Positions 82 through 6,961 of a DNA stretch of 8,229 bases are shown here, piece after piece; position 1 is the stretch's first letter, and every line of letters begins with the position of its first letter. The stretch is taken from IMG/VR virus record IMGVR_UViG_3300029742_000283. The stretch is one strand, 5' to 3'. Made by a program: the position numbers and the translations under genes. The notes under the pieces were generated by a model that saw nothing but the letters and a program-made list of their open reading frames with translations, made no database searches and was not told the origin of the DNA. This stretch comes from a virus. Lineage: Duplodnaviria; Heunggongvirae; Uroviricota; Caudoviricetes.

Positions 82-108
82 AAAAAAAACCCCCACATCA
101 TGTGGGGG
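82..108 (-). terminator. Intrinsic terminator-like hairpin, minus-strand orientation
   Basis: Seen in sequence: 8-bp GC-rich inverted repeat cccccaca (90-97) / tgtggggg (101-108) with a 3-nt loop, directly preceded on the plus strand by A8 (82-89), i.e. followed by U8 on a minus-strand transcript. Lies in the non-coding region beyond ogr. Confidence 0.5.
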
Positions 109-198: not shown

Positions 199-232
199 AT
201 AAATAAAGCCCCTCAACTGAGGGGCTATTTTT
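199..232. terminator. Bidirectional intrinsic terminator immediately downstream of ogr
   Basis: Seen in sequence: stem gcccctc (208-214) / gaggggc (219-225) with loop aact; plus strand then has T5 (228-232); minus strand has TTTATTTAT after the stem (207-199). The ogr stop codon (TGA, 237-239 on minus) is 12 nt upstream of the stem. Confidence 0.55.
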
Positions 233-236
233 GTGA

Positions 237-455
237 TCACATCCACATAATTTGCTGCCCTGACGGCAACGGGTGCGGCCTTACGGCGTGGACTTCTCCC
301 GGCTTCACGATGTATCGCTGTACCGACTCATAAGTGATGAACGTGGCACTGCAATTCACGTTCTGGCACTGATGATAACGCTCTTTTGTCGTGTCAGTGA
401 TATAGCGGCTTGTACGCGCATGTGCGGCATGCTGGCATAAAGGACAATGAAACAT
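237..455 (-). CDS. ogr: Ogr, zinc-finger late-gene transcriptional activator (72 aa)
   Basis: Translation MFHCPLCQHAAHARTSRYITDTTKERYHQCQNVNCSATFITYESVQRYIVKPGEVHAVRPHPLPSGQQIMWM matches my recollection of phage P2 Ogr, with a CxxC...CxxxxC zinc-binding motif. True start is the internal ATG at 455-453, preceded on the minus strand by AAGAGGTG (RBS, about 7 nt spacing); the 93-aa ORF-track version starting at 518 is an upstream in-frame extension that overlaps the promoter. Position after gene D matches P2 order. Confidence 0.9.
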   Translation of the reverse strand: MFHCPLCQHAAHARTSRYITDTTKERYHQCQNVNCSATFITYESVQRYIVKPGEVHAVRPHPLPSGQQIMWM

Positions 456-536: not shown

Positions 537-1700
537 TTACTCATCACCTTCTGTTTCGTACTCCACATCAGAAAGCCTGACCTCAAGCTCTAAGGACGTC
601 GTGAAGCCGCTATTATTCAGAAAATGTGTCACCTTAGTGATTGTCCAGTCCTGCTCGTCTATGACGCGCTTAAAGCCAGACACTTTGACCGGTGTTTCCG
701 TGTAAATATCTGCCCGACCGGTAGCCAGGCTGATGGAGAACTCCGCAACGCCCCGTTGCAGTTTATCCCACTTCGCCTGAGCGGCGCGCATGGCCTGCGC
801 TTTCGTGGCATATACCGTGGTCAGGGCAAAAACGTTGTCAGCCTCACCGGCCATGTATTCACCTTCACGCGCTTCCGGTACTTTAGGCGCTTTCTTCTGC
901 CTGACCGGTTTCGCTTTCGGGTGCTCCAGTGCGCGCAGGTGTTTCTCTTTCTTTTTGCGTTTCAGTTTTACCTTCTGCTTTTGAGGCTTCGGGTCTTTGG
1001 TGTGTAGCCATTTTGCCGTTACACCGGTGTAGGCTCCACGGTCAGCAATCGCAAAATGATGGCGGTCGCCGTCGCTGCGGGTTATGGTGACCTGCGGGAT
1101 TTTTTTACCGCTGGCCGTCACTCCCTGCCCCGCTTTGAGAAACAACAGTTTTCCCATTTTTACCGACACCTCACCGCCGTTGCGTTCTGCAAGACGGGTC
1201 AGGAATTTCGCATCAGACTCCTGCGACTGGTCGATGTGCGGGATTTTAATTCCGGCCAGTGACGGCGCGACACTGGCTTCCAGCCTGTTACGGGAGGCTA
1301 TCACCTCAACAATCGCACCGAGCGTGGTGTCATGCCAGGAGCCTTCACGGCGGGAATTGAGCGTCCCGCGAAAATCTGCACTCCGGGCGCGGATGGTAAC
1401 CACATCCGGCGCGCCCCGGTGTTCAACCTCATCAACGGTAAATTTCCCTTTGCATACCAGGGCAAAACCTTTCCAGCCGATATACACCGTCAGGACAGCG
1501 CCACGAACCGGCAGCCCGACCTGCCCGTCGGCATCGTTCAGTTCAATATCAAGCTGGTCAGCCTCAAAGCCCCGGTTATCCGTCAGGGTCATACTCATCA
1601 GACGGTCGCTGATATTGCCGGTAATATCCCTGCTGTCGAGCATCAGCATGTAATCCGGCGTCAGCGTACTGCCTGCATCAAATGTCAGCGCATCCAGCAT
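537..1700 (-). CDS. D: Tail protein D (phage late control gene D family, gpD), 387 aa
   Basis: 387-aa ORF whose length and sequence match my recollection of P2 gpD; sits between U and ogr as in P2. Its ATG (1700-1698) overlaps the U stop TAA (1702-1700) as TAATG, indicating translational coupling. Confidence 0.88.
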   Translation of the reverse strand: MLDALTFDAGSTLTPDYMLMLDSRDITGNISDRLMSMTLTDNRGFEADQLDIELNDADGQVGLPVRGAVLTVYIGWKGFALVCKGKFTVDEVEHRGAPDVVTIRARSADFRGTLNSRREGSWHDTTLGAIVEVIASRNRLEASVAPSLAGIKIPHIDQSQESDAKFLTRLAERNGGEVSVKMGKLLFLKAGQGVTASGKKIPQVTITRSDGDRHHFAIADRGAYTGVTAKWLHTKDPKPQKQKVKLKRKKKEKHLRALEHPKAKPVRQKKAPKVPEAREGEYMAGEADNVFALTTVYATKAQAMRAAQAKWDKLQRGVAEFSISLATGRADIYTETPVKVSGFKRVIDEQDWTITKVTHFLNNSGFTTSLELEVRLSDVEYETEGDE

Positions 1701-2179
1701 TATCCCTCCCCCGTCATACCCGTGAATTTAGTCGCCATACTGCCAGCCTTACCGATGAGCGATTCCGCCTGTTTACCGATATCGCCATAAAGCGCGGCCA
1801 GTGATTCATCAACGCGGGTGAGTGACAGCGTAAAATCAATTTTCCGGGGTGTGCCGTCTGCAAAGAAAATACTCCCTGTTTCACTCACCCTGCTGATGAC
1901 ATACATGCCGTAAATCATGCCGGTGCCATCCAGCAACGGCCACGCCCGGCCTTCCTCTGCCATCAGTCTGAGCGTGGTCATCGTCAGCTTCCCGCCGGTC
2001 AGTTCAGGATAAAGCACACCGGCAAGCGTGATGTTTTCCTCACCCGCACCGAGAAACTGAAAGGCATCCCGTTTGCCGATACGGGAATTTGACGGCCAGC
2101 GATAATCTGATTCACGCTGCATGGTCTGGTGTGGCAGCGTCTGGCGCATAAAAACAAACATACCTAACGCGAGCATCAT
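1700..2179 (-). CDS. U: Tail protein U (gpU), 159 aa
   Basis: 159-aa ORF, same length as P2 gpU, located between T and D. Strong RBS AGGAGG 8 nt upstream of the ATG at 2179 (minus strand). Confidence 0.88.
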   Translation of the reverse strand: MMLALGMFVFMRQTLPHQTMQRESDYRWPSNSRIGKRDAFQFLGAGEENITLAGVLYPELTGGKLTMTTLRLMAEEGRAWPLLDGTGMIYGMYVISRVSETGSIFFADGTPRKIDFTLSLTRVDESLAALYGDIGKQAESLIGKAGSMATKFTGMTGEG

Positions 2180-2193
2180 TTTTCGTTACCTCC

Positions 2194-4641
2194 TTAACCG
2201 TCATGCATCATGCTGGCACGGGCGCGCGCACGTTTATCCCGCTCGTATTTTTCGAGCGCATCCTGTAACTGGCGGTCAAGCTGTGTCCCCGGCGCAGTAC
2301 CGCCCGTCAGGTTGATGTGATATTCGTTTTTACTCTGGTCCACATAAGAGCGACCAGCCGGTGCCGTGACCGGCTGGTAAGCCTGATAGCCTGCATAAGA
2401 GCTGGTCGCCGGAATATAACCACCTGTGCCATACGTGGCGGCATGAGTTCTGGCGGCAGTCTGGTCAAGTGCGTCAGACTCTTTGTTGATGACGCCGAGT
2501 TTTTCCAGTACCCAGTCAATACCGCTGCGCAGTTTGTTGAACGCATTAAGCGGCAGCATCAGCGCGTCAGCCAGTGCCTGCCCGAACATGACGCCAGTAT
2601 CACGGCAACGGTTCAGGGTGTCCTGGGTGGCTTTGACCGGGGCAATCAGGTTTTTAAACCACTGCCACGCGGCCTGTAACTTTTCGCCCAGCCAGTCAAA
2701 CACCGGCTTCAGTGGCGTGAACAGTTCTCCCACCGGCGCAAATGCCGCTTTCAGCCCTTCCACCACACCGCCAAAGAATGCGCTGACAGGCTCCCAGTAT
2801 TTACGGATAAGCAACGCCCCGGCGACAATGGCGGCCACCACAGCCACAACCGGCCAGCTAATCGCCCCGATGGCCGTCATAACAGCACTGCCAACCGTCG
2901 TGAAGATTGCCCCCATTGCGCCTGCTGCCGCGATGATGGCATTGATGCCAGTGATAACCGGCCAGGCTACGAGGCCAATGGCACCGATGACAGCAGTCAG
3001 CGCCAGTGCGCCACCGGCAATGAGGCCGATGGTTGACGCCAGTGATTTGTTTTTCTGGATCCAGCCATCGAGTTTTAACACATACTTTGTGGCCGTCTGT
3101 GTGAGATTACGCAGTGCGCCTTCCTGCTGGTCAAACAGGTCAGTCCCCACCGCCTCATAAGCGGACTGAAACTCCTTAAAGTCACCGCCGAGGTTATCCT
3201 GCATGATTTTAACCAGCTCTTCCGTTTTACCGTCCGAGGCTTTCAGCGTGGCGGTCAGCTTATCCAGTTTTCCGCTTGCTGCCGCTGCCAGTAAAACGTT
3301 CGCTGATTTCAGGGCTTCCTCACCAAAAATGGTTTTAAGGTATTCCCCCTTCTGAGACGTTCCCAGCTTGTGTTTATCAAAGCTGGCCTGAATCTCTTTC
3401 AGAATGGTGAACAACGGACGCATATTTCCCTTTTTGTCCGAGGTTTTAACGCCAAGCTCTTTGAGTGCATCCCATGCTTTTCCAGTCGGTGCCTGTAATC
3501 GGGTGACAACGGCACTGCTACCCGTACCCGCCATTGACCCCCTGATGTTATTGTCATGCAGCACACCTGTCATGGCCGCTGCCTGCTCAAGACTTACACC
3601 TGCCGTCCTCGCAACCGGCCCGAGGTAAGTCAGTGCATCACTGAGCCCCTGAAAATCAGCCGCCGACTTATTCATCGTTGCCGACAACACGTCGCCCACA
3701 TGGCTGACATCATCATTTGACAGTTGAAAGGATGCCTTAGTCCCCAGCAACAGTTGCGCGTTTTCTTCCATCGACCGCTGATTCGCCAGTGCCATATTCA
3801 GCGTGACCGGCGTTGCCGCCTGAATAGCCGCAGCATCTCCACCCGCTTTCGCAATGATAATCTGCGCACCGGCCGCATCATCCGCCGAGGCGGCGGTATT
3901 ATCGCCGAGCTGGCGCGCCTGCTTGCGGAGCGCGGCCATTTCGGCGGAGTCTTTTGCCACTCCGAGCACGGCCTGCAATTCTGAGTTTTTCTGCGCAAAC
4001 TCATAACCGGGCATCAGCAACTTAACTCCGGCCATCGTTCCCGCCGCCGCAATCCCCACACCGGCAGCGCCCACTGAGGCCATATTTCCGGCCAGTTCCT
4101 TTCCTGCCTGATAACGCTGTTTGACTGCGTTAAGTTTTGCCTGTTGTGCACTGACACGCGCCAGCGCGTCACGCTGACGATTAAGCTGTGCGGTGGTTTC
4201 ACTGATACGGTTTTTCAGCCCCTGCTCATCATGTGCAAGATTGCGGGTATTAATTCCCACAGCGGCCAGTTCCCGCTGCTGGCGTTTAACGGAATCCGTC
4301 AGGCGGTTATATTTCGCCTGTAAGTCCTCCGCCGCACGCTTTGCGGATTCCAGCACTTTCGCCTGAGCACGGGTCGGTCGTTCGGTGTTTTTAAACTGTG
4401 TGGCAAGGGCTTCGGCCTCCTGCCGTGCCTTTTCAAGTGCATGACCAGTCACGGCGAGCTGTGCACTGGTCTTGCGAAATCCCTCAATACGGGATGCCTG
4501 ACCGTTCAGCTCGCGCAGTGATTTTTGTGTTTCCCGGATATCCCCCGACAGCGTCTTGCTCGCTGTACGGATGGATTTAAACGGGCGGGATGCCTGGTCA
4601 ACAGCCCTGAGCAATACCTGTAATTTTACATTGTTACTCAT
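2194..4641 (-). CDS. T: Tail tape measure protein (gpT), 815 aa
   Basis: 815-aa ORF, same length as P2 gpT. N-terminal half is rich in predicted coiled coil (Q/A/R/E/K-rich); it has a long hydrophobic Ala/Gly/Ile-rich segment typical of tape measure proteins. The start overlaps the end of the E' frameshift product. Confidence 0.9.
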   Translation of the reverse strand: MSNNVKLQVLLRAVDQASRPFKSIRTASKTLSGDIRETQKSLRELNGQASRIEGFRKTSAQLAVTGHALEKARQEAEALATQFKNTERPTRAQAKVLESAKRAAEDLQAKYNRLTDSVKRQQRELAAVGINTRNLAHDEQGLKNRISETTAQLNRQRDALARVSAQQAKLNAVKQRYQAGKELAGNMASVGAAGVGIAAAGTMAGVKLLMPGYEFAQKNSELQAVLGVAKDSAEMAALRKQARQLGDNTAASADDAAGAQIIIAKAGGDAAAIQAATPVTLNMALANQRSMEENAQLLLGTKASFQLSNDDVSHVGDVLSATMNKSAADFQGLSDALTYLGPVARTAGVSLEQAAAMTGVLHDNNIRGSMAGTGSSAVVTRLQAPTGKAWDALKELGVKTSDKKGNMRPLFTILKEIQASFDKHKLGTSQKGEYLKTIFGEEALKSANVLLAAAASGKLDKLTATLKASDGKTEELVKIMQDNLGGDFKEFQSAYEAVGTDLFDQQEGALRNLTQTATKYVLKLDGWIQKNKSLASTIGLIAGGALALTAVIGAIGLVAWPVITGINAIIAAAGAMGAIFTTVGSAVMTAIGAISWPVVAVVAAIVAGALLIRKYWEPVSAFFGGVVEGLKAAFAPVGELFTPLKPVFDWLGEKLQAAWQWFKNLIAPVKATQDTLNRCRDTGVMFGQALADALMLPLNAFNKLRSGIDWVLEKLGVINKESDALDQTAARTHAATYGTGGYIPATSSYAGYQAYQPVTAPAGRSYVDQSKNEYHINLTGGTAPGTQLDRQLQDALEKYERDKRARARASMMHDG

Positions 4642-5061
4642 TCGTGTTTCCGCTTCGCCGGAGCGCCTTTTCGCGCCATGTGATGAGTTCGGTCAGGCTC
4701 ATGGGATACAGTTCTGATGGCGGCCAGTGAAATATCACTGCCACATCCGCCATCAGGTCATCGACCGAGAGATTTTTCGGAAACGTTATTGCACCGAGTT
4801 CGGAGACAAAAAACCGACCACCTTACCGGCCAGCGCCACAAGGTCAGGCAGTTCCAGTGCGGCGACTTCCTGCTCGGTCAGCATCGGTGCAGTCATGCGC
4901 GGCAGCACCTTAATCAGTGCATCGACTTCGGAGTTCGCGACCGCAGCCAGACTGACACCGCGCAGCGTCCCGGCATTGGGTTTCATCAGCGTGACCTGTT
5001 CGATGACCTGCTCACCACGCTTGACCGGATTGTCCAGGGTAATCACATTTTCTTTGTTCAT
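4634..5061 (-). CDS. E': Tail assembly chaperone gpE+E' made by programmed -1 ribosomal frameshift (142 aa)
   Basis: I translated the -1 frame downstream of the slippery heptamer by hand: ...VGFL then VSELGAITFPKNLSVDDLMADVAVIFHWPPSELYPMSLTELITWREKALRRSGNTNE, stop TAA at 4636-4634. That is 85 aa + 57 aa = 142 aa, the size I recall for P2 gpE+E'. The E' stop overlaps the T start (4641). Confidence 0.75.
4786..5061 (-). CDS. E: Tail assembly chaperone gpE (91 aa, zero-frame product)
   Basis: 91-aa ORF matching my recollection of P2 gpE, immediately upstream of T. Contains the slippery site near its 3' end. Confidence 0.85.
   Translation of the reverse strand: MNKENVITLDNPVKRGEQVIEQVTLMKPNAGTLRGVSLAAVANSEVDALIKVLPRMTAPMLTEQEVAALELPDLVALAGKVVGFLSPNSVQ
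4807..4813 (-). other. -1 frameshift slippery heptamer T_TTT_TTG
   Basis: Seen in sequence: minus-strand GGT TTT TTG in the E frame (plus-strand caaaaaac at 4807-4814). Heptamer of X_XXY_YYZ type, positioned so the -1 frame stays open to just past the T start. Confidence 0.7.
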
Positions 5062-5089
5062 GGTTTTCTCACTTCTGAATCAGGGTTAA

Positions 5090-5110
5090 CCGGTCAGCCT
5101 GGCTGACCGG
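5090..5110 (-). other. Stem-loop in the FII-E intergenic region
   Basis: Seen in sequence: ccggtcag (5090-5097) / ctgaccgg (5103-5110), 8-bp perfect stem with a 5-nt loop, between the FII stop (5118) and the E start (5061). No strong U-tract follows on the minus strand. Confidence 0.45.
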
Positions 5111-5117
5111 ATGAAAA

Positions 5118-5636
5118 TCACAGGCCGATATTGCGGCGGTGTTGCTCCAGCCGGTCGACGCCGTTCACCTTCTCAATCATGTTGATGGTGTCAATTTCGA
5201 CCAGCTCCTTACCGTCCATCGTCAGCCGGAAATAGGTACAGACCACGGAGATTTTCGACTCGGTGTCTTCTCCCTGTTTACCCTCGCCGGTGTCGATTTC
5301 TTTCTGACGGCCACGCATGACCACTTCGACGGCCACCGTTTCGCCGGTATCGTCACGCTGGTAAGAGCCAGCAAAACGAATCGGCACGGCATCCACACCG
5401 GTTGCGGCGTAAAGCTCCCAGATAACCGAATCCGGGAAGCCCCCGAGCGACCACTCCATTGACAGCGCATCGTCATCAAGGCCGAGGTCTACCGGTGCGC
5501 TGCCGTTCATCCCCGCACCGCGATAGTTTTCGAGCTTACGGGTCAGTTTTGGCAGCGTGACGGACTTTGCAACGCCCTGATAGCTGTAGCCGTTCAGAAA
5601 GACGTTCATTAACTTGAGTTTGCGCGGCATTGCCAT
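5118..5636 (-). CDS. FII: Tail tube protein (gpFII), 172 aa
   Basis: 172-aa ORF matching my recollection of P2 gpFII in length and sequence; RBS AAGGAG 8 nt upstream of the ATG at 5636; directly downstream of the sheath gene. Confidence 0.9.
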   Translation of the reverse strand: MAMPRKLKLMNVFLNGYSYQGVAKSVTLPKLTRKLENYRGAGMNGSAPVDLGLDDDALSMEWSLGGFPDSVIWELYAATGVDAVPIRFAGSYQRDDTGETVAVEVVMRGRQKEIDTGEGKQGEDTESKISVVCTYFRLTMDGKELVEIDTINMIEKVNGVDRLEQHRRNIGL

Positions 5637-5648
5637 CGGTCAGGCTCC

Positions 5649-6839
5649 TTAATTGCTGTTAACCGAGGTGACCAGATTTGCCAGGTATTTATCGGTAATA
5701 CGCTGGCGCAGGGTCAGGTTTTCAAGAGGAGGCACCGGGGTATAGTCGTAGTCGATATACAGTTTTCCGGCCTTAAGGGTTTCCGCATCGTTGGATTCTT
5801 CGCTGAACCAGCATGAGCCATCCACGATATAGCCGTTTGTTTTCAGCTCACGGAATTTGGCATTGATGCCGTCAACGATGTCGCGAATCAGCGTTGCGGT
5901 GATGGGCTTGTCCACCGCCCACATGTGCGCCTCAGCCATCGTGTCGGCCAGCACCTGCGCGGTGCGGGTGTAGTTTTCAAAGAGGAACAGCGGGTCATCA
6001 GAGCAGGTACGGTTACCCCAGAATCGGAAACCGTCGCGTCGAATCAGCGTTGTGACGCCAGACTCGTTAAGCAGGTCAGCATCGGTACCGGACTCCTGCA
6101 AATCCCAGAATACGGACGCGCTGATGCCGGTAACACCGTTTACCCCGACGTTGGACAGCGTTTTATGCCAGCCCTGCTCCTGGTCGATTCTGGCACGCAG
6201 ACCCAGCGCACGGGCGGTGGCATACGCGGTGGCGGTGGTACTGGTGACCGTATCCCATGCGAGGAAATCCGGCCAGATGACCATCAGCTCACGCTGACTG
6301 AAATTCTGGCGGTAGGCTTTCACCTCGGAAATGGTTTTACAGCCCCATGCGCTGATATACCCGAAAGCGCGCAGCTTCTGGCAGACTGATGCCAGTGCAA
6401 CAGCCACCTCTTTGGTGTCCAGTCCCGGCACACCGAGAATACGCGGTTTAACACCGGTTACCGACTCTGCCGCCAGCAGGGCTTTCAGTCCGGTATACTG
6501 ACCGTTTTCGTCAGTGGTGCCGATGATATTGGAAACGGTCTGCGCGAGTTTCGTTTCTTCGTCGTCGCCGGTGCCGTCTTCCACACGCACGACAACGGTG
6601 ACCGGTTTTGACTGGTCAGCGATGGCCTGCAGCGACGCCGCCAGCGTGCCTTTTTTACCGGCCTTTGCAATTGCGCTCTGCACATTGGTAATCAGCACAG
6701 GTTTATTGAGGGGGAAGGTTTCCGCATCCGCATCGCTGGCCGTGCAGACCATGCCGACAATGGCAGTGGATACGGTGGAAATGACGCGGGTGCCGTCGTT
6801 AATCTCCAGCACCTGCACGCCGTGATGATAGTCACTCAT
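5649..6839 (-). CDS. FI: Contractile tail sheath protein (gpFI), 396 aa
   Basis: 396-aa ORF beginning MSDYHHGVQVLEINDGTRVISTVSTAIVGMV..., which I recognise as near-identical to P2 gpFI. RBS GGAG about 8 nt upstream of the ATG at 6839. Confidence 0.92.
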   Translation of the reverse strand: MSDYHHGVQVLEINDGTRVISTVSTAIVGMVCTASDADAETFPLNKPVLITNVQSAIAKAGKKGTLAASLQAIADQSKPVTVVVRVEDGTGDDEETKLAQTVSNIIGTTDENGQYTGLKALLAAESVTGVKPRILGVPGLDTKEVAVALASVCQKLRAFGYISAWGCKTISEVKAYRQNFSQRELMVIWPDFLAWDTVTSTTATAYATARALGLRARIDQEQGWHKTLSNVGVNGVTGISASVFWDLQESGTDADLLNESGVTTLIRRDGFRFWGNRTCSDDPLFLFENYTRTAQVLADTMAEAHMWAVDKPITATLIRDIVDGINAKFRELKTNGYIVDGSCWFSEESNDAETLKAGKLYIDYDYTPVPPLENLTLRQRITDKYLANLVTSVNSN

Positions 6840-6935: not shown

Positions 6936-6961
6936 AAAAAAGGCGGGCAATCAGCCCGCCT
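6936..6961 (-). terminator. Intrinsic terminator downstream of the tail fiber / tfa transcription unit
   Basis: Seen in sequence: stem aggcgggc (6941-6948) / gcccgcct (6954-6961), loop aatca; on the minus strand the stem is followed by TTTTT (6940-6936). Lies between tfa and FI, where P2 separates the V-G and FI-D late operons. Confidence 0.6.

Follow-up and report, generated by a model that had tools for sequence, protein, structure and literature searches.

Hairpins within operons

In Escherichia coli the partial terminator present between rplL and rpoB is an attenuator that acts inside an operon to set subunit ratios, while the REP element of malE-malF and the hairpins of the puf operon are intercistronic structures that stabilize messenger RNA. 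The hairpin discussed in the present work, which separates the tail-tube gene from the chaperone gene in P2-type phages, is of an already known kind, that of ordinary intra-operon control, and it has an annotated ortholog. With the rplL-rpoB attenuator it would share its proposed role, that of a leaky stop placed between high-copy upstream genes and low-copy downstream genes of a single transcription unit; the two are unrelated in sequence. With the malE-malF and puf elements it shares a stable stem-loop devoid of a U-tract, 3' of the more expressed proximal segment. Yet it is not a REP sequence, it is present as a single copy per phage genome, it matches no Rfam entry, and its role as a barrier to decay is putative.

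The closest described counterpart is found in phage 186. The curated record of this phage (NC_001317.1) has, at 15906..15932, the feature 'tI; partial terminator of pJ transcript', which reads ACCGGUCAGC-ACU-GCUGGCCGGU. As the same record labels its other terminators 'predicted' or 'expected', this wording suggests, without proving it, that tI rests on transcript data. Gene order in 186 is J-I-tI-H-G-F-D, to be compared with FI-FII-hairpin-E-T-U-D in the DNA studied here, I being the homolog of FII and H that of E. Judging from location and alignment, the hairpin is the ortholog of tI. Both lie on the sense strand of a late tail operon, between the tail-tube gene and the E-type gene; the 5' arm of tI is identical to that of our hairpin, the two 3' arms share 8 of 9 positions, and 94 relatives aligned in register make a continuous series of intermediates between the two. 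The tails that follow the stems are similarly poor in U (UAUUACCCCC in 186, UUAACCCUGA here). By contrast, tI has a U.G wobble pair where our hairpin has U-A, its loop is ACU instead of CAG, its stem can be extended to 10-12 bp, the flanking genes display only about 74% protein identity between the two phages, and it is for 186 tI only that a function of partial terminator has been annotated. In the reference record of P2, the hairpin between FII and E is unannotated, though terminators and one 'putative attenuator' are annotated elsewhere, and full-text literature searches found no transcript mapping of the FII-E junction. The reference annotation of P2 lacks a feature carried by its sister phage 186. 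To be sure, this kind of regulation belongs to textbooks, and confirmation would refine annotation while leaving understanding unchanged.

The tail operon and its single gap

The window, namely the whole stretch of 8,229 nucleotides that was analysed (IMG/VR record IMGVR_UViG_3300029742_000283), is the tail-gene end of a P2-type (Peduovirus) prophage, with its genes on the minus strand (Table 1). P2 and many P2-like phages show 97-99% DNA identity to this region, the FII protein is 100% identical to that of P2 (tblastn), and the sequence was found in 1,598 of 5,426 complete E. coli genomes. The P2 record groups FI, FII, E, E', T, U and D into one 'F operon', which begins at the Ogr-activated pF promoter, with the activator site and the transcription start immediately upstream of FI, and which stops at the terminator that follows ogr; in the window, pF is located between the terminator at 6961..6941 and FI. 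Within this operon the 56 nt that extend exactly from the stop codon of FII to the start codon of E (5062-5117) make the sole sizeable non-coding gap. This gap is also the boundary between the genes for the high-copy sheath and tube and the low-copy E, E+E', T, U and D, with the tail genes T, U and D (537..4641, minus strand) downstream of the hairpin. An internal promoter for E was considered and rejected, as a sequence scan of the spacer found no promoter-like site. It may be added, as a matter of nomenclature, that the label 'head closure' given to FII, the tube protein, by PHROG 55 and by many phage entries of RefSeq, those of P2 and 186 included, is a propagated misnomer.

Table 1. Genes and RNA features of the tail operon in the window (all on the minus strand)
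Feature	Position	Strand	Basis
FI, tail sheath, 396 aa, first gene of the late F operon	5649..6839	-	ORF list; PHROG tail sheath, E = 2.7e-160; same gene order in the P2 record
FII, tail tube, 172 aa, TGA stop at 5120..5118	5118..5636	-	
E, tail assembly chaperone, 91 aa, ATG at 5061..5059	4786..5061	-	
E+E' -1 frameshift run UUUUUUG	about 4812..4806	-	frameshift annotated at the matching relative position in the P2 record
T, tape measure	4641..2194	-	ORF list, PHROG
U	2179..1700	-	ORF list, PHROG
D	1700..537	-	ORF list, PHROG
ogr	455..237	-	
Conserved mRNA hairpin (5' arm 5110..5102, loop 5101..5099, 3' arm 5098..5090)	5090..5110	-	folding, conservation, 186 annotation
Pyrimidine-rich 7-nt spacer UUUUCAU, stop codon to stem	5111..5117	-	
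Tail 3' of the stem, UUAACCCUGAUU, U-poor, C-rich and G-poor; expected site of any terminated 3' ends	5078..5089	-	
Weak Shine-Dalgarno region of E, GUGAGAA	5066..5072	-	
Canonical terminator (8-bp stem, UUUUUAU), end of the preceding tail-fibre operon	6941..6961	-	terminator scan
Canonical terminator 3' of ogr	207..226	-	terminator scan; in P2, annotated as ending both the ogr transcript and the F operon

A stable structure after the tube gene

On the messenger strand the gap, with its bordering codons, reads UGA-UUUUCAU-CCGGUCAGC-CAG-GCUGACCGG-UUAACCCUGAUUCAGAAGUGAGAAAACC-AUG. The segment CCGGUCAGC-CAG-GCUGACCGG folds into a hairpin with a 3-nt loop, located 7 nt past the FII stop and 28 nt ahead of the E start, with a predicted energy of -15.8 kcal/mol. 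A previous sequence-only reading had described at this place a perfect GC-rich stem-loop of 8 bp; the location and the perfect pairing hold, and the stem has 9 pairs (7 G-C and 2 A-U). That reading had also proposed RNA folding of the minus strand of the gap as a check, and a stable structure is obtained: the 56-nt spacer has a folding energy of -19.4 kcal/mol, whereas dinucleotide shuffles give -10.65 +/- 2.51 kcal/mol (z = -3.49), not one of 200 shuffles being as stable, and the hairpin is kept in the centroid structure of a 161-nt context. A search of Rfam with 5062-5117 gave no match even at E <= 1, and the motif is present as a single copy in each of the genomes of P2 and 186, which led us to reject a repeated element of the REP/BIME type or a member of a known RNA family.

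When the 56-nt spacer is folded on its own, the hairpin of the minimum-energy structure stands on a 7-bp lower stem in which UUUUCAU pairs with the Shine-Dalgarno sequence of E, GUGAGAA, and similar pairing can be formed in Klebsiella phage ST512-KPC3phi13.2. This might mean that the hairpin serves as a clamp, lowering translation initiation of E. The lower stem, however, is worth only about 3 kcal/mol and it is absent from the centroid of the 161-nt context. When coding context is included, the probability that the Shine-Dalgarno sequence pairs with the spacer is 0.17 in the P2 group, and it falls in 71 diverse relatives to 0.024, below the 0.052 of shuffled spacers. Sequestration of the ribosome-binding site of E was rejected on this count, and we deem translational control of E very improbable.

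At the DNA level the hairpin corresponds to an inverted repeat of 10+10 nt, with its arms 1 nt apart. In the set made of the window and loci L003-L082, two loop alleles, CAG and CUG, are common. The central base of a perfect 21-nt palindrome (window position 5100) is all that distinguishes them, so that reverse complementation turns either allele into the other; the switch between them could happen via a point change or via inversion of the hairpin.

Selection for pairing in the messenger RNA

Conservation was explored in 80 near-identical IMG/VR loci and in 80 loci from different Enterobacterales species with 70-100% identity in FII, to which P2 and 186 were added. Altogether, 163 P2/186-like loci yielded 95 distinct FII-E spacers, and a hairpin is present at the matching position in 94 of these. 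Stems of 7-12 bp close loops of 3-6 nt, with energies ranging from -9 to -21 kcal/mol (median -15.8), and they begin 3-10 nt (median 7) past the FII stop. The short segment between stop codon and stem is 79% pyrimidine and the tails after the stem are 77% pyrimidine, with 37% C and 5% G in the first 10 nt; overall, pyrimidines make up about 78% of the flanks, which are poor in G. The remainder of the spacer can barely be aligned among relatives, and nothing else in it is conserved.

The single exception comes from Yersinia aldovae ATCC 35236 (L144), with a spacer of 26 nt that looks like a 186-like spacer from which stem-loop and tail have been cleanly deleted. The hairpin, having been lost in this clean way, is not indispensable. 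One assembly in the sample deserves a word of caution for database users: L086 (CACSKA010000005.1, 'Chryseobacterium sp. 18061') is labelled as Bacteroidota and contains an enterobacterial P2-like tail operon, with an FII 94% identical to that of the window and the same FII-E spacer as Citrobacter sp. OP27 (L087), likely the result of contamination or mislabelling.

Covariation was measured in a helix of 11 pairs, after 89 sequences had been aligned with MAFFT without forcing. The bases are paired in 87.9% of cells, a share that falls to 13-44% once the partners on the 3' side are displaced by 1-3 columns. Double-sided compensatory changes are seen in seven of the 11 pairs, and none of 500 shuffles matched any of the five measures used. 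As cases in point, columns 27-50 are C-G (63 sequences), G-C (10) or A-U (2), columns 28-49 are C-G (82) or U-A (4), and columns 31-46 are U.G (44), C-G (28) or U-A (15), this last pair being U-A in the window and U.G in both P2 and 186. Conservation of the hairpin in P2-like phages with compensatory changes in its stem, which had been named beforehand as a check, is therefore found across the relatives. The structure is also oriented. Because G·U wobble pairs are lost in the complement, the hairpin of the messenger sense is stabler than its antisense counterpart in 56 of 74 diverse sequences, with means of -16.5 and -13.3 kcal/mol respectively. Loop sequences, for their part, vary freely.

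Taken together, compensatory changes, the strand bias created by wobble pairs and the free variation of the loop tell us that selection bears on pairing in the RNA of the sense strand, not on a palindrome in DNA nor on a loop motif. The perfect 10+10 palindrome of the window might otherwise have been seen as the site of a dimeric protein, as a signal for recombination or for the junction of modules, or else as a chance structure with no function. A pair that is U.G in half of the relatives, however, would be mismatched both in a palindrome of DNA and on the other strand, the loop is free in length (3-6 nt) as in sequence, and the motif occurs once per genome in P2 and in 186. The DNA-level palindrome or protein-binding site was rejected on account of the U.G pairs, the sense-strand bias and the freedom of the loop. 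As for chance, the shuffle test and the conservation of the hairpin in a spacer that cannot otherwise be aligned speak against it: the hairpin is not a chance structure. Neither member of this family of explanations retains more than a very slight probability.

A possible terminator without a U-tract

The absence of a strong U-tract, already stressed in the sequence-only reading, stands: only 3 U are found in the first 8 nt past the stem (UUAACCCU), and the hairpin is skipped by a terminator scan, which does recognize three canonical terminators in other parts of the window. The same scan gave a hit inside E (4834..4812), which was rejected as a terminator; its U-run is the UUUUUUG of the E/E' frameshift, and its fold is weak (z = -0.31), not above shuffles. 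With the canonical intrinsic terminators of the window (6961..6941 and 226..207) the hairpin has much in common, namely a G+C-rich stem of 8-9 bp, a short loop, energies of -15 to -17 kcal/mol and a location after a stop codon on the sense strand, and its dimensions fall within the 5-14 bp of stem and 3-8 nt of loop that characterize such terminators. It departs from them in that it has 3 U where a U-rich tract would have at least about 5 in 8 nt, and in that it sits inside an operon, 7 nt from a stop codon, with essential genes downstream.

A score of the d'Aubenton-Carafa type, computed with modern energy parameters and of value for relative ranking only, places the window hairpin at -11.5 and 186 tI at -12.0, against +14, +42 and +51 for the operon-end terminators of the window. 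The stems of the latter being similar in stability, the gap lies in the U-tract, with 6-8 U in the first 8 nt at the operon ends. Among the relatives the median is 3 U in 8 nt, and only 7 of 94 score above zero; clearly U-rich tails were seen in L155, L157, L121 and L137.

The ribosome would add a second handicap. At lambda tR2, termination drops from about 90% to under 10% when a stop codon is placed 5 bp upstream, the last ribosome blocking the closing of the base of the hairpin, and about 10-15 nt or more of free RNA is needed between stop codon and stem for folding behind that ribosome (Li et al., PMC4824070). The distance is 7 nt in the window and 3-10 nt in the relatives, short of this figure. 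A poor U-tract combined with a nearby ribosome predicts a weak stop at best, and with the polymerase of E. coli such a hairpin may terminate very little.

These features lend weight to a purely post-transcriptional explanation, in which the polymerase would not be stopped at all. An RNase E-type cut downstream, in the A/U-rich single-stranded stretch that precedes E, or an end created by Rho, would give access to 3'-to-5' exonucleases, and the hairpin would block them, so that the FI-FII segment would outlast the distal segment; differential expression would be equal to that obtained by termination, via another step. It is indeed the stable stem that has been conserved and not the U-tract, while the stem keeps to the very range of distances from the stop where the ribosome strongly represses termination (PMC4824070), and a bias for the sense strand at the RNA level would be expected here as well. 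Against this, the curators of 186 chose for the ortholog the label of partial terminator, and U-rich tails do exist in several relatives (the four loci just cited, as well as phages of Mannheimia and Pseudomonas described below), which suggests that termination is a selected activity, tuned in its strength. We regard stabilization as the sole function as unlikely, while granting it serious weight. Termination and stabilization lead to the same stoichiometric outcome, and the two may operate jointly.

Rho might also act in a more direct way. The hairpin would make the polymerase pause, the untranslated stretch beyond it, rich in C and poor in G, would load Rho, and a fraction of the transcripts would be ended within E or T. 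The composition of the 10 nt after the stem, maintained across relatives, is in line with this view, as are the about 35 nt left untranslated before the weak ribosome-binding site of E. The C-rich stretch, however, covers only about 10 nt, when typical Rho loading sites are far longer, and the spacer has no other conserved element; this makes an attenuator of the Rho-dependent or pause type quite improbable.

The same junction in more distant phages

The junction between tube and E genes was further examined in P2-like phages more remote from the window. Unrelated G+C-rich hairpins occupy it in Klebsiella ST512-KPC3phi13.2, Ralstonia RsoM1USA, Stenotrophomonas Smp131 and Burkholderia PhiBP82.2, and hairpins are likewise present in Yersinia vB_YenM_56.17 and Erwinia ENT90. 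In Mannheimia vB_MhM_1127AP1 the junction harbours a full terminator with its U-tract, annotated from TransTermHP, and in Pseudomonas PPpW-3 a canonical terminator, again with a full U-tract. No hairpin was found at the tube-E junction of Burkholderia KS5 and Aeromonas 13AhydR10PP. All in all, these junction hairpins resemble that of the window in their position and in their design, a G+C-rich stem-loop, while their stem sequences are unrelated to it; some have a full U-tract, most have none.

Further IMG/VR sets, 39 ST512-like and 56 Burkholderia-like, were compared over the first 45 nt past the tube stop with composition-matched shuffles, after exclusion of two mis-anchored loci (L206 and L289). 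Folds more stable than 95% of shuffles were observed in 95% of the 39 ST512-like sequences, in 64% of the 56 Burkholderia-like ones and in 88% of the P2/186-like ones. In both new sets the tails again lack U-tracts. That a hairpin appears to have been kept at this junction in other lineages, even with unrelated stems, counts in favour of a leaky terminator. Consistent absence of the U-tract across lineages fits a stabilizer that does not terminate equally well, and this pattern of stems without U-tract in two further lineages is part of the case for it.

A proposed leaky stop in the late F operon

The reading that we favour, somewhat above even chances, is that the hairpin is the P2-type ortholog of 186 tI and would work inside the late F operon as a factor-independent terminator that is weak by design. 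Transcription would begin at pF, upstream of FI, and once FI and FII had been copied, the nascent RNA would fold into the 9-bp G+C-rich hairpin. Because the tail is poor in U, and because the ribosome finishing FII would cover the base of the stem, only a fraction of the polymerases would, on this proposal, be released. The product would be an abundant FI-FII messenger of about 1.8 kb, its 3' end capped by the hairpin and shielded in this way from 3' exonucleases. Those polymerases that are not released would also transcribe E, E+E', T, U and D, as far as the ogr terminator. As a result, more message would be made for the sheath and tube, required in roughly 200 copies, than for the chaperone, tape-measure and baseplate-hub proteins, required in few copies. 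The P2 record, with its single F operon from FI to D and no annotation of a hairpin, counts against this proposal. Its general form, a partial terminator or a stabilizing 3' hairpin giving differential expression within one operon, had been put forward from the sequence of the window, and it draws support from covariation, from the annotation of tI and from the location of the hairpin at the boundary between high-copy and low-copy genes. The termination event itself, its efficiency, the stabilizing effect and the effect of the ribosome are what we infer from these observations.

The short distance between stop codon and stem may have a meaning of its own. It is conceivable, albeit rather doubtful, that the conserved 3-10 nt that separate the stem from the tube stop are themselves the selected feature, kept even when stems have been replaced, and that the hairpin is an attenuator gated by translation. 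Read-through would take place when the base of the stem is hidden by a ribosome completing FII; when the polymerase runs ahead of the ribosomes, the hairpin would form and transcription would stop. If so, whether the genes for the tape measure and the baseplate hub are transcribed would depend, for each individual polymerase, on tube protein being made at that moment.

As a leaky terminator, the hairpin would explain how one late promoter supplies from a single operon both the about 200 copies of sheath and tube and the few copies of chaperone, tape-measure and hub proteins. For those who engineer P2-type phages, tailocins and contractile injection systems, it would make a natural part for tuning expression, its stem being stable, its tail weak and the stop codon close to it.

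Other structures at the prophage end and in the head genes

Beyond the ogr terminator, at 90-108 (minus strand) and 147-168, there are a second canonical terminator (9-bp stem followed by U8) and an A+T-rich palindrome that is perfect (TGATATAAAT/ATTTATATCA); the two are presumably close to the attachment site or to the boundary of the prophage. On the plus strand, 82-237 gave sub-threshold Rfam matches to Hrs1 (31.8 bits for a gathering score of 56.4, E = 0.004), STnc100 and Phe_leader; these matches, located over the ogr terminator and the end region of the prophage, probably owe their scores to the terminator hairpins. Finally, outside the tail genes, a long hairpin of about -46 kcal/mol occupies the gap between the small terminase gene (M in P2, R in 186) and the head completion gene (L and Q, respectively), at 5901-5999 in the P2 locus (L174) and 6648-6739 in the 186 locus (L173); it is conserved between the two phages and annotated in neither record.
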